Source: an uncultured Desulfobacterales bacterium
GTDB lineage: Bacteria > Desulfobacterota > Desulfobacteria > Desulfobacterales > Desulfobacteraceae
Reading direction: 5' to 3'
DNA: 64,000 nt
NCBI GenBank assembly: GCA_964397015.1
Contig: CAYNHL010000002.1
Span: 201-64,200 of the forward strand
Under the pieces are notes generated by a model, which saw only the letters and a program-made list of their open reading frames with translations, searched no databases and was not told where the DNA came from. Positions 49,986 to 59,799 of the stretch are shown here, piece by piece. The translations under genes were made by a program, and so were the position numbers. Within the stretch, counting starts at the first letter, position 1. The number at the start of each line of letters is the position of its first letter.

Positions 49986-50963
49986 ATGAGCAACAGAAAA
50001 AAGGATCATGCCGCCTGCCAGACCGAGTTGATGGATCAGCTGAATTACCGCCGCAAACTGCCTGATGTCATTGATCATGTTATAAGTTCAATTGATGATG
50101 ACCGCTGCTTTGCCCATGTGGGAGACGATCCGCTGCATTTTTCGACATCTGTTACGGAAATGATCGATAAATTCAGGGAAATTCTTTTCCCGGGATATTT
50201 TTCAAGTGAAAAGGTGGATCATGCCAACCTGCGTTACCATATAGGCCAGGCCGTGTCCAGGCTGTATGATATACTGTCCCACCAGGTGATGCATGTGCTT
50301 CGGCATGATTGTCTGAGATACGGCCAGGTCTGCACGGTCTGCGAGGAAAAAGGCAATTCAGTGGCAATGAAAGTGATCGAAGCCATCCCGTCCCTGCGCA
50401 TCATACTTTCCAAGGATGTAAGGGCCGCTTATGCTGGAGATCCGGCAGCCAAAAGCTTTGACGAGATCATTTTTTCATATCCAGGGCTCTATGCCATCAT
50501 GGTGTACCGTATTGCTCACCTGCTGTTTGAGAACGGCGTTCCCCAGCTGCCCCGGATTTTAACTGAACATGCCCATTCCGTGACCGGGATCGATATTCAT
50601 CCGGGGGCCCGGATCGGTGAGAATTTCGTTATCGATCACGGGACCGGTATTGTAATAGGAGAAACCAGTGAAATCGGAAGCAATGTAAGGATCTACCAGA
50701 ATGTCACTATCGGAGCGCTGTCCCTGCCGGCGGACGCCGGGGACAAACTGCGCTGGGCCAAGCGCCATCCTACGATCGAGGACGATGTCATCGTCTATTC
50801 AGGCGCGACCATTCTCGGTGGAGAGACCCGCATCGGCGCCCGTTGTGTCATTGGCGGCAATGTCTGGCTGACTGAATCGGTACCGCCGGATACCAAGGTT
50901 TTTATCGAAACCCCCCGGCAGGTATTTAAAAACCATGATGCAGAAAAAGGCGGTGAAAAATGA
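49986..50963 (+). CDS. cysE: Serine O-acetyltransferase (long N-terminal form)
   Basis: Hexapeptide-repeat core GIDIHPGARIGENFVIDHGTGIVIGETSEIGSNVRIYQNVTIG. Confidence 0.85.
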   Translation: MSNRKKDHAACQTELMDQLNYRRKLPDVIDHVISSIDDDRCFAHVGDDPLHFSTSVTEMIDKFREILFPGYFSSEKVDHANLRYHIGQAVSRLYDILSHQVMHVLRHDCLRYGQVCTVCEEKGNSVAMKVIEAIPSLRIILSKDVRAAYAGDPAAKSFDEIIFSYPGLYAIMVYRIAHLLFENGVPQLPRILTEHAHSVTGIDIHPGARIGENFVIDHGTGIVIGETSEIGSNVRIYQNVTIGALSLPADAGDKLRWAKRHPTIEDDVIVYSGATILGGETRIGARCVIGGNVWLTESVPPDTKVFIETPRQVFKNHDAEKGGEK

Positions 50964-51880
50964 TGATAAAACCTGATATGACCCACACCTGCTTCAATAC
51001 CCCGCTGGTACGCCTGGAAAAGGCCAGCGCCGAGTCAGGAGCCATATTGCTGGCAAAGGTCGAATTTTTCAACCCCACCGGCAGTGTCAAGGACAGAATA
51101 GGGTACGCCATGATCGAAGATGCCTGGGAAAAGGGTCTGATCAACCGGCAGTCGGTAATAGTGGAACCTACCAGCGGTAATACAGGTATAGCCCTGGCTT
51201 TTGTCGCCGGGATCAAGGAACTGACTTTGATATTGACCATGCCGGAATCGATGAGCATAGAGCGAAGAAAGCTGCTCAAACACCTGGGTGCCCGCCTGGT
51301 TCTCACTCCCGGGGCCCAAGGAATGAAGGGTGCCATCAGTGAAGCCGTAAGAATTGTTGAAAACACTCCCGATGCCTATATGCCGGACCAGTTTTCCAAT
51401 CCGTCCAACCCGAAGATCCATCGGGAAACAACGGCTGTCGAAATCTGGGAAGACACCGGCGGCCAGGTGGATATCTTTGTTGCAGGTGTAGGTACCGGCG
51501 GAACAATTACCGGCGTGTCAGAGGTGTTGAAACAAAAGAAGCCCGCAATACGCTCCGTTGCCGTGGAACCGGCTGATTCTCCGGTGCTTTCCGGTGGGAA
51601 ACCCGGTCCTCATTCAATCCAGGGAATTGGTGCCGGATTTGTGCCTGCCGTATTGAACCGGGATATCATTGACGATATTGTAACAATAACCACAGCCCAG
51701 GCACTTTCCGGGGCAAGACAGCTGGCCCTGCAGGCCGGAATGCTCTGCGGCATCTCCTCCGGCGCCAATTATGCAGCCGCCCGGCAGGTGGCTTCAAGGC
51801 CGGAGAACCGGGGGAAAACCATCGTGTTCGTGGTCTGTGATACCGGAGAGAGGTATATCAGTACCGGCCTGTTCAGCTGA
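50960..51880 (+). CDS. cysK: Cysteine synthase A (O-acetylserine sulfhydrylase)
   Basis: NPTGSVKDR PLP-lysine motif, EPTSGNTGIALA and GTGGTITG. ATGA overlap with cysE. Confidence 0.92.
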   Translation: MMIKPDMTHTCFNTPLVRLEKASAESGAILLAKVEFFNPTGSVKDRIGYAMIEDAWEKGLINRQSVIVEPTSGNTGIALAFVAGIKELTLILTMPESMSIERRKLLKHLGARLVLTPGAQGMKGAISEAVRIVENTPDAYMPDQFSNPSNPKIHRETTAVEIWEDTGGQVDIFVAGVGTGGTITGVSEVLKQKKPAIRSVAVEPADSPVLSGGKPGPHSIQGIGAGFVPAVLNRDIIDDIVTITTAQALSGARQLALQAGMLCGISSGANYAAARQVASRPENRGKTIVFVVCDTGERYISTGLFS

Positions 51881-51895
51881 AGCTCAAACTCAATC

Positions 51896-53065
51896 TTATA
51901 CTGCAGCCCCGTCTTTCCAGAAAGGTGACATGTCCCTGAGTTTTTGAATGGCAGGCACCATGACATTGACAATGCGGTCCATTTCTTCCCTTGTATTGTC
52001 GCATGAAAGGGAAAACCGTATGGAGCCGTGGGCGGACTTGAATGGTACCTTCATGGCCATGAGTACATGGGATGGTTCAAGGGACCCTGATGTACAGGCC
52101 GATCCCGAGGAGGCACAGATTCCCTCCCGGTCCAGCAGCAGCAGGATGGATTCCCCTTCAACAGCATCAAATCCTATGCTCAATGTATTGGGCAGCCGGT
52201 GCGTTATATCGCCGTTTACCGATGTGCCTGGTATTTTGGCCAGCAGCTGGGATTCAAGGTGATCCCTGAGTTCCCTGACATGGGTATCCATTTTGTCAAT
52301 GTGTGCTCCTGCAAGCTCACAGGCCTTTCCTAAACCGATAATGGATGCCGTGTTTTCAGTTCCTCCCCGCCGGCCTTTTTCCTGGTGTCCGCCGATAAGG
52401 AAGGGCTTGAACTTGAGTCCCTTTCTGACATAAAGTGCAGCTACCCCTTTGGGGGCATGTATTTTATGGCCTGATAAAGACAGCATGTCCACACCGGCTT
52501 TGTTTACATCTATGGGGATTTTGCCTGCAGCCTGTACCGCGTCGGTGTGAAAGACAATGCCCTTTTCACGGGCCATGCCGGCAATTTCTTCAATGGGAAA
52601 TATCACCCCTGTTTCATTGTTGGCCCACATGATGGAAATGACTGCAGTATCGCCGGACATGCTGGTATAAAGGGTGTCCATATCCAGGTTCCCTTTTTTG
52701 TCAACCGGTACAAAGGTGACCCGGTAGCCTTTTTTTTCAAGGGTTTTGAATAAGCTGTCAATGGCAGGATGTTCGACGCTGGAGGTGATGATATGCTTTT
52801 TTTCGGGTGCATTCAAAAGTGCGGCATTGACTGCGGCATTATCACTTTCAGTGCCGCAGCTGGTAAATATGATTTCCCCGGGATCGGCATTGATCAATCC
52901 GGCCACCTGCTGCCTGGCAGCGGACAGTTCTCTTGCGACATTGCCGCCGAATGAATGCATGGACGACGGATTGCCGTAATAGCGGCCGAAAAAAGGCAGC
53001 ATTTTTTCGATCACTTCGTCTGCCACCCGGGTGGTGGCATTGTTGTCTGTATATATGATATCCAT
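51896..53065 (-). CDS. nifS: Cysteine desulfurase, NifS type
   Basis: YTDNNATT, GTESDN, SGHKIHAPKG (PLP Lys) and the active-site loop SSGSACTS. Confidence 0.9.
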   Translation of the reverse strand: MDIIYTDNNATTRVADEVIEKMLPFFGRYYGNPSSMHSFGGNVARELSAARQQVAGLINADPGEIIFTSCGTESDNAAVNAALLNAPEKKHIITSSVEHPAIDSLFKTLEKKGYRVTFVPVDKKGNLDMDTLYTSMSGDTAVISIMWANNETGVIFPIEEIAGMAREKGIVFHTDAVQAAGKIPIDVNKAGVDMLSLSGHKIHAPKGVAALYVRKGLKFKPFLIGGHQEKGRRGGTENTASIIGLGKACELAGAHIDKMDTHVRELRDHLESQLLAKIPGTSVNGDITHRLPNTLSIGFDAVEGESILLLLDREGICASSGSACTSGSLEPSHVLMAMKVPFKSAHGSIRFSLSCDNTREEMDRIVNVMVPAIQKLRDMSPFWKDGAAV

Positions 53066-53082
53066 GTGAACAGTATCCTTGT

Positions 53083-53640
53083 CTAAGCTTTCACCGATTC
53101 AATAATGTCTTCGATTTTTTCGATGCAATTTCCGCAACCGCCTCCGGCCTTGAGATAGTTGGTGACATCTTCCACTGAATCCAGTTTTCGGGTCTTAACG
53201 GCATCGATGATTTCCAGGTCGGTGATGCCAAAACACTCGCAGACGATTTCACCCGGTTTGTCCAGTATCTGGACTCCACGGTAAGATGCAATGGCTTTTT
53301 TAAGAGCCTGTTGTCCCATGACGGAGCAGTGCATCTTTTCTTTGGGAAGTCCCCCTAAATAATCAGCAATGTCTTCATTGGTTATTTTTTCCGCATCCTC
53401 GACGGTCATGCCCTTTATTATTTCCGTAAGGGCTGAGGAAGAGGCTACTGCACTGGCACATCCAAAAGTCATGAAGCTTGCATCCATGATACGGCCATTC
53501 TTGTTGATTTTCAAAAACAGCCTGAGGGCATCCCCGCAGGAGAGTGATCCGGTTTCGCCAACAGCATTGGCATCCTTCATTTCACCCACATTCCTGGGGT
53601 TTAAAAAATGTTCCTTGACTTCATCTGTATATTCCCACAT
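53083..53640 (-). CDS. nifU: NifU-like Fe-S scaffold (IscU-like domain plus BFD-like [2Fe-2S] domain)
   Basis: GSLSCGDALRL, TFGCASAVASSS, LPKEKMHCS, then CECFGI...GGCGNC. Confidence 0.85.
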   Translation of the reverse strand: MWEYTDEVKEHFLNPRNVGEMKDANAVGETGSLSCGDALRLFLKINKNGRIMDASFMTFGCASAVASSSALTEIIKGMTVEDAEKITNEDIADYLGGLPKEKMHCSVMGQQALKKAIASYRGVQILDKPGEIVCECFGITDLEIIDAVKTRKLDSVEDVTNYLKAGGGCGNCIEKIEDIIESVKA

Positions 53641-54759: not shown

Positions 54760-55116
54760 TTACTGCACCTGCAGCTCTTTTTTCAGCCAGTTTTTAATAT
54801 TGCCTTCCACCGCATAAACACCCTTGTACTGGCCTATCCCGCTTAAAAATTCTTTTTCAAGCAGCTGCGGCAGTTCGAATTCGGCCAGCTCTTCAGAGTC
54901 GAATCCTTTTCTGCGGATCAGGCGCACCACCGGTGATTTGGACCAGGTACTGATCACAAAATAGACGGTTTCATTGTCGTTGTCCCGTGAATTGTAATAG
55001 GCCTGTGACCGCAGCGGCCCCCATTCAAGATGGAGCGCAATGGCCTCTTCGGGGGTCATTTCCCAGTCCACGGAGTTTATCAGTTGTGTGTCGGTTTTTA
55101 TATCTTCAAGTTTCAT
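54760..55116 (-). CDS. Hypothetical protein (118 aa)
   Basis: The ORF has SD AGGAGGATACA-ATG. No motif recognised. Confidence 0.55.
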   Translation of the reverse strand: MKLEDIKTDTQLINSVDWEMTPEEAIALHLEWGPLRSQAYYNSRDNDNETVYFVISTWSKSPVVRLIRRKGFDSEELAEFELPQLLEKEFLSGIGQYKGVYAVEGNIKNWLKKELQVQ

Positions 55117-55328
55117 TGTATCCTCCTGATTTCAAATGTTGCTGACACCTCTTGCTATAGTTGAGCTAATAAGAGGAGTAGCAAACATTGTGCCTGATGA
55201 AGCGGTCATTATCCAATATCCTGTAATTATATATAGAATTATAAAGTTGATCCAAAAATCGGGGATGTGAACAACAGCTGTCGATACAGTATTGTATTGA
55301 TTGTGGTTGATACATTATTGTATCGACT

Positions 55329-55356
55329 GAAAAACAGGGCTTTGCCTGGTTTTTCA
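55329..55356 (-). terminator. Weak stem-loop flanked by A/T runs, downstream of the Sec-rhodanese operon
   Basis: The plus strand reads GAAAAACAGGGCTTTGCCTGGTTTTTC. A larger imperfect 17-bp hairpin (GTCGATACA...TGTATCGAC) lies at 55281-55328. Confidence 0.4.
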
Positions 55357-55396
55357 AAAAGCAGTTATTAACCGGTTGAAAGGGCGCAGAAGAAAA

Positions 55397-57571
55397 TTAT
55401 GCCTGTTTTCGTTTCCAGGCATGAAATTTTTTTACAAGGGTCAGTAATTTTTGAGGGGCGTGATTCTTTTTCCAGATTCCGGCCGCGTATTTGTTTGCTT
55501 CAGCCATGGTCGGGTATATATGAATGGTGCCCAGAATTTTGTTCAGGCCTATGCCTTGCTTCATCGCCAGCACATACTCGGCGATGATATCGGCTGCATG
55601 CTGGCCTGCAATGGTCACTCCAAGGATGGTGTCTTTCCCCTTCGGGGTGATAACCTTCACAAATCCACGGGCCTGTCCGTCTGTAATCGCCCGGTCCAGT
55701 CCTGCAATATCAAATATGGTGATCTCGTGATTTATGTTTTTTTCTTTTGCCTGTGTTTCATTCAGGCCGACCCTCGCAACCTCCGGTTCTGTATAGGTTG
55801 CCCAGGGAATGGTGCCGTAATCGACCCGGAAGGACTTGATGGTTCCAAAAAGGGCATTGACGCAGGCATACCAGGACTCATGTGACGCTGTATGGGTAAA
55901 TTGAAATGCATTGTTCACATCTCCGCTGCAGTAAATGTTTGGAAAATTTGTCTGAAGCAGCTCATTGGTCTCAATTGAAGTGTTGTTCTGGCTGAATGTC
56001 ACACCAAGGTCTTCAAGGCCGAACCCTGTGATGTTGGGTTTGCGTCCCAATGCAATGAGCAGGTCGTCAAAAGGAATTTCGACCGTCTGGTCCAGGTTTC
56101 GGCACACCAGTATCCTGGATCCGTCTTTTTCCTTGATTTTTATGGCTGCATGTCGGGTCAGCACCACGATACCCTCGGATTCAAACTGTCCCTGCACCAG
56201 TTGCGAGACATCCGGGTCTTCTTTTTTTAAAATCCTGTTTCCCCGCTGGACAAGGGTCACACGGGAACCCAGCCGGGAAAAGGCCTGGGCCAGTTCACAC
56301 CCGATAGGCCCGCCTCCGAGCACCAGCAGCCTGCGGGGCAGGTCCCGGATGCTCCAGATGGTGTCGGAGGTATGGTAAGGTACTCGGGAAAGGCCCTCGA
56401 GGTCCGGTATCATTGGCGAGGCACCGGTGGCCACAATGATGTTTCGTGTAGTCAGGCGGCGGTTATTGACCTCGACGGCAAAAGGGGAGACGATCCGGGC
56501 CCGGCCATGTATACAGTCAACGCCCAGGCCCGTATATCGTTCAACAGAATCATTGGGTGCGATCTGCCCGATAATATCCTGGATCCTGTTCATGACCGCC
56601 TTGAAATTGACTTCTGCTCCCTGGGTGTGGATTCCAAATTCATTTGACCGGTTGATCAGGGAACAGACCCTGGCACTCTGCAGCAATGCCTTGCTGGGCA
56701 CACACCCGGTGTTCAGGCAGTCACCTCCCATTCGGGATGCCTCGATCAGGGCCACCCTGGCCTTGACCGCAGCTGCTATATATGCAGCCACCAGGCCGGC
56801 TGAACCGGCACCTATGACTACCAGGTTGTAATCATATGCTGCAGGTTTGGGGTAGGGCCTGTAGATCCGCCGTTTTTTCAGAATGCGGATTGTCCATCGG
56901 GCAAAAAGGGGAAATATTCCCAGCAGGGCAAAGGAGACGATCAGCCTGGCAGACAGTATGTGGCTCAAAGAATCGATACTTGCCAGTGCCGTGCCGGCAT
57001 TGACATAGACAATGGTTGCAGGAAGCATTCCCAGTTGACTTATGCCGTAGAATAACGGGGTTGAAATGGATGTCACGCCCATGACAAGATTGATGATGAA
57101 AAAGGGAAAAATTGGTACAAGGCGCAGGGAAAAAAGGTAGAACCCCCCGTCTCTTTCAATCCCTCTGTCGATGGCAGCCAGGCGGGAGCTGAATTTTCTT
57201 TTGACCAGGTCACGGAACAGGTAGCGGGATAAAAGAAAGGCCAGTGTGGCTCCTATGGTGCTGCCGAAGGAAACCAGGACAGTACCGGTTAAAAGCCCGA
57301 ACAACGCTCCGCCGGCCAGTGTCATGACCAGGGCGCCCGGAAGGGAAATGGCGGTCACGACAATGTATATGGCCAGGAAAACAGCCATGGACAACCACCG
57401 GTTGTCAATTGTCAGCTGTTTTAGAACATGGGCCTGTTCCTTGAGAAAATCAAGCGAAAGGTATCGGCCCAGATCAAGCATAAAAAAGATCCCGGCCAGC
57501 AGCACAAGTAACAGTACCAGCACAATTTTAACAATTTTTCGGGATCTTGCGGTTTCAGGCGCCGGCCTCAC
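55397..57571 (-). CDS. Fusion of a DedA/TVP38-type membrane domain and a class I pyridine nucleotide-disulfide oxidoreductase
   Basis: The N-terminal ~230 aa have 5-6 TM helices with a DedA-like LPGALVMTLAGGALFG motif. The remainder has VVIGAGSAG, the redox-active GGDCLNTGCVPSK, a second Rossmann LLVLGGGPIGCE, and the C-terminal HIYPTMAE dimerisation/His-Glu motif. The GTG start overlaps the upstream stop (GTGA). Confidence 0.85.
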   Translation of the reverse strand: MRPAPETARSRKIVKIVLVLLLVLLAGIFFMLDLGRYLSLDFLKEQAHVLKQLTIDNRWLSMAVFLAIYIVVTAISLPGALVMTLAGGALFGLLTGTVLVSFGSTIGATLAFLLSRYLFRDLVKRKFSSRLAAIDRGIERDGGFYLFSLRLVPIFPFFIINLVMGVTSISTPLFYGISQLGMLPATIVYVNAGTALASIDSLSHILSARLIVSFALLGIFPLFARWTIRILKKRRIYRPYPKPAAYDYNLVVIGAGSAGLVAAYIAAAVKARVALIEASRMGGDCLNTGCVPSKALLQSARVCSLINRSNEFGIHTQGAEVNFKAVMNRIQDIIGQIAPNDSVERYTGLGVDCIHGRARIVSPFAVEVNNRRLTTRNIIVATGASPMIPDLEGLSRVPYHTSDTIWSIRDLPRRLLVLGGGPIGCELAQAFSRLGSRVTLVQRGNRILKKEDPDVSQLVQGQFESEGIVVLTRHAAIKIKEKDGSRILVCRNLDQTVEIPFDDLLIALGRKPNITGFGLEDLGVTFSQNNTSIETNELLQTNFPNIYCSGDVNNAFQFTHTASHESWYACVNALFGTIKSFRVDYGTIPWATYTEPEVARVGLNETQAKEKNINHEITIFDIAGLDRAITDGQARGFVKVITPKGKDTILGVTIAGQHAADIIAEYVLAMKQGIGLNKILGTIHIYPTMAEANKYAAGIWKKNHAPQKLLTLVKKFHAWKRKQA

Positions 57572-58689
57572 AATGCTTTTTCCATGTCCTGGAATTTTTT
57601 CATGAAGCGCATATCTATAAAATCCTTTATTTTAAAGGCCAGGGTGCCGGAGAATACCAGCCTGCTTTTTTTCAGTACCCCTTTTGCCCCCCCGACGTTG
57701 AAGATCAACAGGTAGTCGGGGCCAGGATCGAAGGGTTCCAGGGGAGCCTGCTCCAGGGCGGCCATCAGGTTGTGATACAGTACCGGATTTTGGCGGACGG
57801 CATAAACACCGACTTTGTCCAGCGGGGCATCCTTGAAATATATGCAGTCTCCTCCGCCGAAAATTTCGGGATACGCTGTACACTGGAGATAGGTATTGAC
57901 TTCAAGCCCGTTGTCCGGCCCCATCGGAAGCCCTGATTCCTTGAAAATAGGTGACGGGGTGACACCTGTTGCCAGAAAAATAAAATCGGTTTTGAATTTG
58001 TCCCCGGTTTCAAGGCGGATACCGCCATTGTCCATCTCCTTGACATACCCGTTTTCATAAAGGGTGATCCCCCTTTTTTCCAGCATGGCAATAATTTTCA
58101 ATCTAACCTGGTCCGGGAAACGCGACATGAATTTTTTCCCTGCAAAAATGCGGATTTCCGGCATGGGGCTGTTTATCCTTCGGGCCAGCTGCCATACATT
58201 GCCCGCAATTTCAGCGGACGAGGGACCGCCCCCCACTATGCTGATGATCTTTTTGCCTTTGGCCATCATGTCGCGTAATTTTTCCTGGGCCGTCATAAGG
58301 CGCTCGATGGGTTTTACTGAAAAAATAAGGTCATCACTGCCGCTGATCAAGTTCCTGGGCACAAAGCTGCCCGCGTTGAAAGACAATACGTCATAGGATA
58401 CCGTTTCTTTTGATTCCAAAAAAATGATCCTTTTATCAGGATCGATCCTGACCACCTTGTCTTTGATAAATTTTCCGCCCTGTTTTTCAACAGTATGGCG
58501 GGTGGCGAACCGGATATCTTCCGGTGAATAGGTCATGCCCAGCATGCCGGGTCCCATACCTGAATAGTAATGGTAATCAGACGGGCCTATGACAGTGACC
58601 TGGTGTCCTTTTTCAATGAATCGGCTTATATTGGCAAGGGTCACCATATGGGCATGGCCCCCGCCCACCAGTACCAGTTGTTTTCCCAT
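57568..58689 (-). CDS. NAD(P)/FAD-dependent oxidoreductase (NDH-2/SQR-like fold, no CxxxxC)
   Basis: MGKQLVLVGGGHAHM N-terminal FAD fold, a second Rossmann IVGGGPSSAEIAG, and a GGGDC-like FGGGDCIY motif. The start is set at ATG 58689 after AGGAGA. The track start at 58722 is also possible. Confidence 0.8.
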   Translation of the reverse strand: MGKQLVLVGGGHAHMVTLANISRFIEKGHQVTVIGPSDYHYYSGMGPGMLGMTYSPEDIRFATRHTVEKQGGKFIKDKVVRIDPDKRIIFLESKETVSYDVLSFNAGSFVPRNLISGSDDLIFSVKPIERLMTAQEKLRDMMAKGKKIISIVGGGPSSAEIAGNVWQLARRINSPMPEIRIFAGKKFMSRFPDQVRLKIIAMLEKRGITLYENGYVKEMDNGGIRLETGDKFKTDFIFLATGVTPSPIFKESGLPMGPDNGLEVNTYLQCTAYPEIFGGGDCIYFKDAPLDKVGVYAVRQNPVLYHNLMAALEQAPLEPFDPGPDYLLIFNVGGAKGVLKKSRLVFSGTLAFKIKDFIDMRFMKKFQDMEKAL

Positions 58690-58740
58690 GATATCTCCTG
58701 TCCTGTATCGGGTTTTGGGCATAGCGGAATGCCTCTGGAT

Positions 58741-59571
58741 CTACAGGGAATCGATCAGTTCCCCCAGGTGCCTGAGATGCTGTTTTTCCTCATTGGCAAT
58801 ACGGTAGAGCATGTCCCTGCTTTCAGGCGTGTCAGCCTGTTTTGCCGCACGTTCATAAAGATCGAGCGCCTGGGCTTCGATTGACATGGCCATGGCAATG
58901 ACCTCGGCAGGAACATTCAGGTCTGTTTTAAACAGCTCCAGGTATTCTGATGATGTCATGCCGCCTTCCAGAACCGTATCATCCACTTTTGCCTCGAGGG
59001 CCTGCTTGTCTGTATCCGGGTCAACCCGGTCCTGGTATTCTTTAAGCAGCCGGTCCTGGTGGATGATTTCAATGTCAGCCAGTTTTGAAAAAAGATCGCG
59101 TACGGCTGAATTGTCTGTTTCATCGGCCATGGAAAGGTAGAACTGTCTCAAACCGATTTCCAGAGAATAGGCTGTCAACAGGTTTTTATCCAGGGATTCA
59201 TTACCTGAGAACAGTTCAAGACCCTGGGTCTGGGGCCCGACAGCCACATTCCCCTGGTATCCCTTTATTCCCCCTGAAATATTGTAAACTTTATCAAACC
59301 CTTTCCCGGAAAGCATCTGCGCAGCCACCCGGCTACGTCCGCCAATAGCTCAATAGACCAGGACCGGTTTGTGGGGATCGATTTCACCCATCCGGTCCGA
59401 CAGTTCGGGAAATGGAATCAGGGTGGCGCCGGGAATATGACTCTCCTGGTATTCTGACGGCTGCCGGACATCCAGAAGGGTGAATTCGTTTCCCGGAGTT
59501 TCATTGATAAATGACCGGGTTTCAGGCCCGGTCATCGATTTGACCGGTGTAAAAAACTGTTTCCATTTCAT
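58741..59571 (-). CDS. Predicted selenoprotein: rhodanese domain (Sec at the catalytic position) fused to a ferritin/rubrerythrin-like diiron domain
   Basis: Two same-frame track ORFs are joined by a single TGA (59350-59352), giving ...HKPVLVY-U-AIGGRSRVAAQML..., the rhodanese C-x4-R-S loop. A SECIS-like hairpin follows. The C-terminal domain has two ExxH motifs (EIIH, EKQH). SD TGAGGA before ATG 59571. Confidence 0.75.
59320..59337 (-). promoter_or_regulatory. Candidate bacterial SECIS hairpin
   Basis: The mRNA reads CGUAGCC-GGGU-GGCUGCG: a 7-bp stem including one G-U, spanning nt +16 to +33 from the U of UGA, with apical-loop G/U at +23 to +26. Confidence 0.55.
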
Positions 59572-59637
59572 GATATATCCTCAAATTATTTATTGAACAT
59601 GGTGCCTGCCCTTAGTGGAAAGACAATTGTGTCTCAA

Positions 59638-59799
59638 TTATTTTTTCCCGATACGCTCATCGGTCGGCTGACCGTCACAATCCGGTGTGTAGCATGAATT
59701 GTCCACAAAAGAGCACCGGCTTTTACAGGAAGGACATTCTTCCGGCGGTGCAGCGGTTTCCAGTTGATATCCGCATTTTTCACATACCCAGTTGCTCAT
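59638..59799 (-). CDS. Small Cys-rich zinc-ribbon / rubredoxin-like protein (53 aa), absent from the ORF track
   Basis: My translation is MSNWVCEKCGYQLETAAPPEECPSCKSRCSFVDNSCYTPDCDGQPTDERIGKK. The CxxC...CxxC knuckles resemble the rubredoxin-like domain of rubrerythrin. Strong SD AAAGGAGG 7 nt upstream. Confidence 0.7.
   Translation of the reverse strand: MSNWVCEKCGYQLETAAPPEECPSCKSRCSFVDNSCYTPDCDGQPTDERIGKK

Follow-up and report, generated by a model that had tools for sequence, protein, structure and literature searches.

A selenocysteine-containing rhodanese/di-iron protein and its flavoprotein partner in Desulfobacterales: a possible split chalcogen reductase

Introduction

What does a catalytic selenocysteine (Sec) do in a protein that joins a rhodanese domain to a di-iron domain, and which of the surrounding genes share its work? 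The question is raised by four genes on the minus strand of a 64,000-nucleotide (nt) stretch of DNA, here called the window, from an uncultured Desulfobacterales bacterium. These genes, which we call g1 to g4, encode a small Cys-rich protein, the Sec-rhodanese/di-iron protein itself, a flavoprotein and a fusion of a membrane domain to a disulfide reductase. An earlier note on this DNA described them as four co-directional, tightly packed minus-strand reading frames, which they are, and proposed that they form an operon, a candidate module for the reduction and trafficking of selenium or another chalcogen. We find that the functional core is the pair of g2 and g3, with g1 and g4 as frequent accessories, and we tentatively interpret this pair as a split reductase acting on a zero-valent chalcogen bound to Sec. 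The features of the locus are listed below (aa, amino acids; SECIS, selenocysteine insertion sequence).

59799-59638, minus strand: g1, a 53-aa Cys-rich rubredoxin-like protein
59571-58741, minus strand: g2, a 276-codon rhodanese/di-iron frame with one in-frame TGA
59352-59350, minus strand: the in-frame UGA of g2 (Sec74), at the catalytic position of the rhodanese loop U-A-I-G-G-R-S
59320..59337, minus strand: SECIS-like hairpin of g2, with a 7-bp stem CGUAGCC/GGCUGCG and a GGGU loop, 12 nt after the UGA
58689-57568, minus strand: g3, a 373-aa FAD/NAD(P)H flavoprotein
57571-55397, minus strand: g4, a 724-aa fusion of a DedA/VTT domain to a disulfide reductase
~55356-55280, minus strand: two adjacent stem-loops 3' of g4, a putative transcription end

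Results

Selenocysteine decoding in g2

Relatives of the locus were collected in a scan of one genome per species, which returned 385; the best 80, all of them Desulfobacterales, were examined. The in-frame UGA of g2 aligns with the invariant Cys of the motif CA[IV]GGRS in 16 homologues, and the same codon is TGA in 66 of the 80 related genomes and TGC or TGT in 14. Metagenome loci repeat this division, with TGA in 33 and Cys in 9. Both the reading frame and its conservation continue past the TGA. The SECIS-like hairpin downstream appears in the minimum free energy fold as well as in the centroid fold, and every one of the 67 Sec forms has GGGU or GUGU in the loop. Because the hairpin overlaps conserved codons (GRSRVAAQ), a synonymous site was used as the test: the third base of the Ala codon that pairs within the stem is U in 66 of 67 Sec forms, as opposed to 3 of 14 Cys forms (Fisher p = 3.5e-10). 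Two loci, L037 and L077, carry compensatory changes in the hairpin. Judged by this codon comparison, the hairpin is under constraint in the TGA forms only. With a UGA at a Cys position and a hairpin bearing a G in its apical loop, g2 has both sequence hallmarks of a bacterial selenoprotein gene, and we take it on these grounds to be a true selenoprotein, as the earlier note had proposed.

Gene callers read the TGA otherwise. Public gene calls divide g2 into a 73-aa rhodanese fragment (59350-59571) and a 191-aa rubrerythrin-like fragment (58741-59316, P0001), and the Logan contigs L001 and L002 are split into 73-aa and 191-aa fragments in the same way. For this annotation to be right, the TGA would have to be a true stop or an inactivating mutation, which we regard as extremely improbable. 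It would sit by accident exactly at the catalytic Cys in 66 species-level genomes, frame and conservation would run through it, the codon constraint would be confined to TGA forms, and the 73-aa fragment would be left without the catalytic loop. In its favour, the 64-kb window contains no tRNA-Sec or other Sec machinery; neither Rfam at gathering thresholds nor ARAGORN returned any match across it, and the RNA scans thus add no independent support for a SECIS element or a tRNA-Sec. The splitting of Sec-form g2 genes in public databases is a systematic mis-annotation.

The two domains of g2

Read through the UGA, g2 matches the Pfam family Rhodanese (PF00581, 70.8 bits, residues 29-106) and, in its C-terminal half, Rubrerythrin (PF02915, 55.2 bits, residues 129-271). 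More than 1,500 homologues of ~276 aa share this architecture. The active-site loop of this single-domain rhodanese, U/C-A-[IV]-G-G-R-S, has the six-residue form of rhodanese-type sulfurtransferases, and since g2 has no Cys at all, Sec74 is its sole redox-active chalcogen residue. An AF2 model of the Cys homologue P0012 comprises an alpha/beta domain joined by a flexible linker to a four-helix bundle (pLDDT 78.8, pTM 0.77, both confidence measures of the model), with the rhodanese domain superposing on solved rhodaneses at 1.3-2 Å. A PDB fold search with this model returned rhodanese-domain matches only, so that there is no solved precedent for the two-domain arrangement and the search taught us nothing about the di-iron domain. 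The nearest sequence and structure neighbours of the rhodanese domain are those of CoADR-RHD (3icr), Npsr (3nta/6pfz), CoA-persulfide reductase (8a56), the persulfide dioxygenase (PDO)-rhodaneses (3tp9/5ve3) and Sud (1qxn); the nearest neighbours are domains fused to persulfide-handling redox enzymes.

The C-terminal domain carries the full E / ExxH / E / ExxH ligand set of a ferritin-like di-iron four-helix bundle, as in the di-iron domain of rubrerythrin, and the ligands themselves (E138, E168-x-x-H171, E232 and E262-x-x-H265) are invariant in 50 sequences. Canonical rubrerythrin has a second Glu ligand within an ExxE motif, and at that site the g2 domain reads E-A-Q-A. Furthermore, g2 lacks the rubredoxin-like Fe(Cys)4 domain that the rubrerythrin model NF045767 places on the same polypeptide. 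That model (cut-off 200) did not match g2, and g1 was the single member of the module to match it, at 24.1 bits. No NCBIfam model is passed by g2, the best reaching 57.7 bits against a cut-off of 145. Compared by BLASTP with the canonical rubrerythrin encoded nearby in relatives, the C-terminal domain gave no significant similarity (E = 0.58), and on this basis we rejected g2 as a rubrerythrin proper.

The flavoprotein g3 and the SelD-fused family

The gene that follows g2 encodes a protein of the Pyr_redox_2 family (106.7 bits). Its start at 58689, which yields 373 aa, is preceded by an AGGAGA Shine-Dalgarno sequence, agrees with the starts of homologues and gives a product identical to the database protein P0121. 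The length of 384 aa given in the earlier note corresponds to the longest open reading frame, from an upstream ATG at 58722; that frame exists, but the start at 58689 is the better supported. The best curated family for g3 is TIGR03169, 'Nterm_to_SelD', with 249.4 bits (E = 6.8e-74) over profile positions 2-365 of 365, an end-to-end alignment to which no other curated family comes close. TIGR04369 is second with 136 bits, and the models for NirB, CoADR, SQR and ferredoxin reductases score at most 51 bits, leaving TIGR03169 ahead of the non-SelD-type reductase models by ~200 bits. The earlier note had suggested that oxidoreductases of the GGGH(S/A)H type occur fused to SelD, and had asked whether the protein resembles the N-terminal domain of such fusions. 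The suggestion is borne out by the documented NADH-oxidoreductase-SelD proteins, which are the commonest SelD fusion and are predicted to make the SelD substrate (PMC2432076, PMC4561486). The resemblance also holds, but it stops short of membership: g3 scores under the TIGR03169 cut-off of 310 bits, and it is neither fused to SelD nor adjoining it.

The relatives of g3 were sought in an exhaustive HMMER search of 1.84 billion representatives, and the 150 nearest 50%-identity representatives were inspected. Nearly all are stand-alone proteins of ~370 aa, and eight that were sampled score 243-285 bits against TIGR03169. A second search, made with a profile of more distant family members, likewise returned stand-alone proteins only. 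The single long match, P0350 (831 aa), is fused to two arsenosugar-biosynthesis glycosyltransferases (TIGR04282, TIGR04283) and was ruled out as a SelD fusion by the identity of these partners. Among solved structures the nearest are the NDH-2 enzyme YjlD (62.6 bits), FSP1 and SQR, the last at ~44 bits and over the N-terminal half only; NF049943 (SQR_III_seleno) gives 46.3 against a cut-off of 525, and the solved NADH:rubredoxin oxidoreductase 3klj gives 30.9 bits. The fold class is thus a common one, but the curated scores and similarities are too low for g3 to be counted as a member of the NDH-2/SQR family. Its Cys residues are confined to positions 270 and 282 (GGGDC), with no CxxxxC motif and no redox-active disulfide. 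By these comparisons g3 belongs to a large group of stand-alone proteins that is sister to the SelD-fused domain, within the NDH-2/SQR fold class.

The surroundings of distant members of the family are varied: some lie near DsrC/DsrE, some near an ArsS-like radical-SAM gene with PHO4 and MIP, some near a rhodanese, and others in uninformative positions. One example of the second kind is found on contig L084 (7105-10302), where a Radical_SAM+DUF3641 (ArsS-like) gene stands ~2 kb from the gene of the g3 family and is followed, further out, by transporter genes of the PHO4 and MIP families. Some members of the TIGR03169-like family thus occur in arsenic contexts.

Conservation of the g2-g3 pair

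Synteny was counted by searching the 80 genome loci with the window proteins (tblastn). In 72 of the 73 loci that could be evaluated, g3 is the next gene downstream of g2, an arrangement beyond chance, and the gap between the two is at most 120 nt in 74 of 77. Sec and Cys forms alike show this adjacency, and in Desulfobacterales further removed the two genes stay together on their own while their surroundings change. Cultured carriers of the cluster include Desulfospira joergensenii DSM 10085 (L022), whose Sec form goes with g1, rubredoxin, g3 and g4, as well as Desulfobacula toluolica and, with a Cys form, Desulfobacter latus. When metagenome loci were instead anchored on g3, 45 of 60 had g2 upstream and another had a frameshifted copy; the other 14 g3 orthologues had no g2, which indicates that g3 has a function not requiring its partner. 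Taken together, these reciprocal counts mean that g2 is almost always accompanied by g3, whereas g3 is not always accompanied by g2. None of selD, selA, selB, yedE and yedF adjoins the g2-g3 pair in any inspected locus.

Four of the metagenome loci without g2 (L090, L108, L110 and L117) belong to one clade; their g3 orthologues are 65-68% identical and have opposite-strand genes on either side. A gene for a 158-aa ferritin-like protein lies 2-3 kb downstream in these loci, and was dropped as a possible relative of g2 because its similarity to the di-iron domain is marginal. On L088 (2354-3973) a 539-aa fusion of HAD-hydrolase and AIRS domains is encoded 2 kb upstream of a Cys-form g2-g3 pair. 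This protein is HypE/ThiL/SelD-like, but it falls under every curated cut-off and was rejected as a SelD.

The accessory genes g1 and g4

The conserved four-gene operon proposed at the outset did not survive this comparison. The near-universal unit is g2-g3, and synteny across Desulfobacterales, strict for that pair, is patchy for the outer genes: 40 of 64 genomes have a g1 homologue in the 2.5 kb upstream of g2, and g4 comes after g3 in 32 of 59 genomes and in 10 of 46 loci from metagenomes. Where g4 is present it is always directly downstream and on the same strand; the Desulfotignum loci are without it. g1 is usually followed by a gene for a SagB-like nitroreductase (22 loci) and not by g2, this gene of ~500 aa standing between g1 and g2 in 23 of 64 loci. 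In 29 of 73 loci a true rubredoxin gene (~59 aa) precedes g2 at a distance of 28-188 nt, and either g1 or a rubredoxin, or both, accompanies the pair in 41 of 62. Downstream, a canonical 191-aa rubrerythrin is encoded between g4 or g3 and a DVU0772-family gene in 37 of 59 loci. The window has none of the rubredoxin, canonical rubrerythrin and SagB-like nitroreductase genes of its relatives (55117-55396 and 59572-59637, compared with L003-L082), and so represents a reduced version of the cluster.

The ATG of g1 is preceded by an AAGGAGG Shine-Dalgarno sequence. The protein matches PF21349 (RUBY_RBDX, the rubredoxin-like domain of rubrerythrin) with 31.6 bits against a cut-off of 26.5, and reaches 30.9 bits with NF045720, under its cut-off of 45. 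Its seven Cys residues, at positions 6, 9, 22, 25, 29, 36 and 41, include two CxxC pairs, and presumably form an Fe(Cys)4 site or a zinc ribbon. The membership of g1 itself in the module is partial. The true rubredoxin genes directly upstream of g2 in many relatives strengthen the suggestion, made in the earlier note, that the small Cys-rich protein and the di-iron domain resemble a split rubrerythrin.

In g4, a VTT_dom match (PF09335, 80 bits against a cut-off of 33.9; residues 81-193, ~56993-57331) falls within a region of about five hydrophobic segments (residues 7-228), as expected of the DedA/VTT membrane family. The reductase half (~55484-56830) matches Pyr_redox_2 (PF07992, 201 bits) and Pyr_redox_dim (PF02852, 102.5 bits) and has the features of a class-I disulfide oxidoreductase of the glutathione reductase (GR)/dihydrolipoamide dehydrogenase (LipDH) type, namely the motif CLNTGC at residues 285-290 (56702-56719) and the His-Glu motif HIYPTMAE near the C-terminus. 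No specific equivalog model is passed: NF004991 gives 515.6 bits under a cut-off of 620, and the MerA model TIGR02053 gives 385.8 under 454.45. With residue 570 of 724 as its last Cys, the protein has no C-terminal Cys pair; given this, the score below the cut-off and an N-terminal domain that is DedA and not NmerA, we rejected g4 as a MerA. DedA proteins of the COG0398/TVP38 subfamily are most commonly fused to a pyridine-nucleotide disulfide oxidoreductase (PMC10127716), and g4, having exactly that domain order, can be assigned provisionally to COG0398 by this type of fusion. An exact database look-up of g4 found no record, probably because a different start was called.

Layout, signals and surroundings

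The spacers between g1 and g2 and between g2 and g3 measure 66 and 51 nt, and the GTG start of g4 overlaps the TGA stop of g3 as GTGA, just as the earlier note described. That note also saw stem-loops after the last gene, and here too we agree: two hairpins lie at ~55356-55280, and the 294-nt spacer 3' of g4 (55410-55117) folds at -71.1 kcal/mol compared with a shuffle mean of -52.0 (z = -3.87), none of 200 shuffles folding as well. A scan for consensus terminators did not call these hairpins. The 66-nt spacer between g1 and g2 contains a palindrome, AGACA-caat-TGTCT (59621-59634, minus strand), which may be an operator or may have arisen by chance; the inspected upstream regions of relatives do not conserve it.

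Just downstream of the module, a minus-strand gene of 118 aa (54760-55116) belongs to the DVU0772 family (NF045682, 104.7 bits) and is better conserved than any other neighbour, with relatives showing 71-84% identity. Further along, at 49986-53640, a plus-strand hexapeptide acyltransferase (CysE-like) and a PALP enzyme (CysK-like) are followed by NifS and NifU on the minus strand, and many relatives share the synteny of NifU and NifS. The four genes form a block for cysteine and Fe-S sulfur mobilisation. Because a plus-strand proC and the DVU0772-family gene intervene, this block is a separate operon from the module.

Discussion

A possible mechanism for the g2-g3 pair

The interpretation that we favour, though we hold it at rather less than even confidence, is that g2 and g3 constitute a split NAD(P)H-dependent reductase for a zero-valent chalcogen on Sec74, served by an Fe(Cys)4/di-iron relay. 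The selenolate of Sec74 would attack a donor of sulfane sulfur (polysulfide, persulfide or thiosulfate) or of Se(0), giving an enzyme-bound Se-S(-) or Se-Se(-) adduct. Electrons would pass from NAD(P)H to the FAD of g3, then to an Fe(Cys)4 carrier (g1 in this genome, a genuine rubredoxin in many relatives) and on to the di-iron centre of g2, after which the bound atom would leave as H2S or H2Se and the selenol would be regenerated. As a membrane-anchored, glutathione-reductase-like disulfide reductase, presumably coupled to g3 at translation in this genome, g4 may have a (seleno)trisulfide or disulfide as its substrate at the membrane. Gene anatomy, the signals for Sec decoding, domain families, ligand sets and synteny are observations; how the electrons travel, which way the reaction runs, what it acts on and what g1 and g4 contribute are inferences. 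The system would likely serve in the turnover or detoxification of reactive sulfur species at oxic-sulfidic interfaces, with selenium as a possible alternative substrate.

A split chalcogen reductase is favoured by the closest neighbours of the rhodanese domain, which are fused to persulfide-handling enzymes, and also by Sec decoding at the catalytic position of a sulfurtransferase-type loop, the invariant di-iron ligands, the strict g2-g3 pairing, the frequent Fe(Cys)4 genes nearby and the kinship of g3 with the SelD-fused reductase. Two published systems lend it precedent: a flavoprotein combined with a rhodanese reduces persulfide or polysulfide with NADH (PMC7969121), and in MccSep Sec is essential for polysulfide reduction (PMC13510729). 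Several observations nonetheless count against it. g3 is without the CoADR-type active-site Cys of Npsr and the CoA-persulfide reductases (CoAPR), scoring 48.8 bits against a TIGR03385 cut-off of 578.8, and, by analogy with known persulfide reductases, which need no di-iron domain, this reading would explain that domain only loosely. The neighbourhoods of distant g3 relatives, being unrelated or varied, show no common partner. The 14 of 60 metagenome g3 orthologues that occur without g2 are a further difficulty. Promoter and terminator sites in the window are no commoner than in shuffles and none is usefully placed, so that co-transcription of g1 to g4 cannot be argued from signals of this kind. 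Finally, the rubrerythrin and SagB-like nitroreductase neighbours fit an oxidative-stress island at least as well.

Alternative readings of the cluster

That last point leads to a defence against peroxide or oxygen, which we consider unlikely without dismissing it. The cluster would then be a split rubrerythrin-type NAD(P)H peroxidase in which electrons flow from g3 through g1 or rubredoxin to the g2 di-iron centre and on to H2O2 or organic hydroperoxides, and the Sec-rhodanese would be a helper site for redox or repair reactions, such as the reduction of sulfenic or persulfide damage, or would itself be a selenol peroxidase. Ferriperoxin, a rubredoxin-less rubrerythrin homologue, is a peroxidase with a flavoprotein and NADPH alone (PMC3317640), and the present parts are suggestive: g1 matches the rubredoxin-like domain of rubrerythrin, g2 falls in the rubrerythrin Pfam family, and relatives carry an upstream rubredoxin (29/73), a downstream canonical rubrerythrin (37/59) or a nitroreductase-family gene (23/64). 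What such a peroxidase leaves unexplained is the sulfurtransferase-type rhodanese, with its catalytic Sec or Cys, fused in all of the >1,500 homologues. Nor is the g2 di-iron domain, which has E-A-Q-A in place of ExxE, detectably similar by BLASTP to canonical rubrerythrin; g3 is only weakly similar to NADH:rubredoxin oxidoreductase, and distant genomes keep g2-g3 with neither rubredoxin nor rubrerythrin nearby. The composition of the cluster raises a different doubt, namely that only g2 and g3 belong together and that at least one of g1 and g4 is a neighbour by genome history, the 'four-gene operon' having arisen through local deletions of the nitroreductase, rubredoxin and rubrerythrin genes of relatives. 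We regard this as a possibility, if on balance a doubtful one. The irregular occurrence of g1 and g4, and the habit of g1 of preceding the nitroreductase gene, agree with it, and since the whole region from PepP to NifS is syntenic, the adjacency of g1 and g4 can reflect shared ancestry. On the other side stand the GTGA overlap, the constant position and strand of g4 wherever it occurs, and the presence of an Fe(Cys)4-type gene, either g1 or rubredoxin, with the pair in about two-thirds of loci (41/62).

Rhodaneses can carry selenium as a perselenide, and the earlier note preferred a selenium-specific assimilation system, a role that we regard as clearly improbable. Oxidised or thiol-bound selenium would be taken up or reduced and selenide passed to SelD, the pair being a stand-alone equivalent of the NADH-oxidoreductase-SelD fusion, with the rhodanese as perselenide carrier and the DedA fusion handling selenite or selenotrisulfide at the membrane. 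Some evidence speaks for it. TIGR03169 and then TIGR04369 are the top families of g3, and published work predicts that the fusion helps to produce the SelD substrate (PMC2432076, PMC4561486); a DedA-selenite link is attributed to Ledgham 2005 in PMC10127716; the window and all 80 genome loci come from Desulfobacterales, users of Sec; and the fusion of a g3-family member to arsenosugar glycosyltransferases shows the family recurring in metalloid contexts. Other evidence speaks against it. g3 lies under the TIGR03169 cut-off and its nearest relatives are not fused to SelD, the pair has no selD, selA, selB, yedE or yedF beside it in the inspected loci (the AIRS-domain neighbour on L088 not being a SelD), 14 of 60 g3 orthologues are without g2, and the rubredoxin, rubrerythrin and nitroreductase genes in the loci of relatives point to oxidative or reactive-sulfur stress as much as to selenium. 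Moreover, Sec is normally catalytic for sulfur or redox chemistry and does not point to a selenium substrate, g4 is missing from about half of the loci, and the DedA-reductase fusion is generic to the COG0398 subfamily, which the literature discusses in relation to aerobic metabolism (PMC10127716). A broader version of the same idea, which strikes us as more speculative still, would make g2-g3 a dedicated perselenide reductase that supplies selenide to SelD in Desulfobacterales, with a selenoprotein as its carrier and the pair as stand-alone counterpart of the NADH-oxidoreductase-SelD fusion. The wider flavoprotein family around TIGR03169 would then reduce, quite generally, zero-valent chalcogens and metalloids that are bound to thiols or selenols, with members fused to SelD, fused to arsenosugar glycosyltransferases and next to DsrC/DsrE.

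Relation to known systems

Returning to the split chalcogen reductase, its nearest functional parallels are Npsr, CoADR-RHD and CoA-persulfide reductase, each of which likewise combines a pyridine-nucleotide flavoprotein with a rhodanese whose catalytic chalcogen binds sulfane sulfur (PMC7969121). Each of those is one polypeptide, which has an N-terminal catalytic Cys of the CoADR type and binds CoA, whereas in the cluster the flavoprotein is a separate gene product, TIGR03169-like and without such a Cys, and the Sec-rhodanese carries a di-iron domain; the resemblance is one of function only. From the NADH-oxidoreductase-SelD proteins the cluster differs in that g3, like its 150 nearest relatives, stands alone, and in that its conserved partner is the rhodanese/di-iron protein and not SelD. 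The chains formed by rubrerythrin or ferriperoxin with NADH:rubredoxin oxidoreductase (NROR) and rubredoxin contain the same three parts, a di-iron domain, an Fe(Cys)4 module and a flavoprotein of ~370 aa (PMC3317640). In the cluster, however, the di-iron and Fe(Cys)4 modules are on separate genes, the di-iron domain is highly diverged and fused to the Sec-rhodanese, and g3 is not an orthologue of NROR.

For g2 itself, the closest published proteins are the rhodanese-like selenoproteins (forms 1-5 of a 2026 review, and the 'rhodanese-related sulfurtransferase' of deltaproteobacteria), which have Sec at the catalytic position within a UxxG motif, as g2 does, and which are abundant in deltaproteobacterial symbionts and marine Deltaproteobacteria (PMC13188914, PMC1976440, PMC8318568). 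A rubrerythrin-like fusion and a flavoprotein partner go unmentioned in their descriptions, on which the comparison is based. The persulfide dioxygenase-rhodanese proteins CstB and BpPRF, structural neighbours of the g2 rhodanese domain, also fuse a rhodanese to a non-haem iron domain, and that iron domain acts on the persulfide bound by the rhodanese. It is a mono-iron domain of metallo-beta-lactamase fold that uses O2, while g2 has a di-iron four-helix bundle, a strictly anaerobic host and an NAD(P)H flavoprotein as partner. Other DedA-disulfide reductase fusions differ from g4 in that g4 is coupled to g3 by the start/stop overlap.

The Sec-rhodanese is thus of a known kind, and every component comes from a known family. 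By the defining features of each, the cluster falls outside rubrerythrin, MerA, Npsr/CoADR, NDH-2/SQR and TIGR03169. Literature searches for a rhodanese-rubrerythrin fusion, for TIGR03169 and for their pairing found no description; the rhodanese/di-iron fusion and its near-invariant pairing with a stand-alone relative of the SelD domain appear to be undescribed in the literature searched.

Significance

The source of reduced selenium for SelD in bacteria is unsettled, and the role of the SelD-fused oxidoreductase has been a prediction since 2008 (PMC2432076). The present comparison identifies a large stand-alone branch of that flavoprotein family which, in Desulfobacterales, is found almost invariably beside a Sec or Cys rhodanese-di-iron protein. 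This provides a defined system of two or three proteins that could be reconstituted with sulfur, selenium and peroxide substrates. Should the substrate prove to be sulfur or peroxide, abundant marine sulfate reducers would, in this pair, possess a novel kind of reductase for persulfide, polysulfide or peroxide, and g2 would in addition provide an example of Sec in a sulfur-carrier fold.

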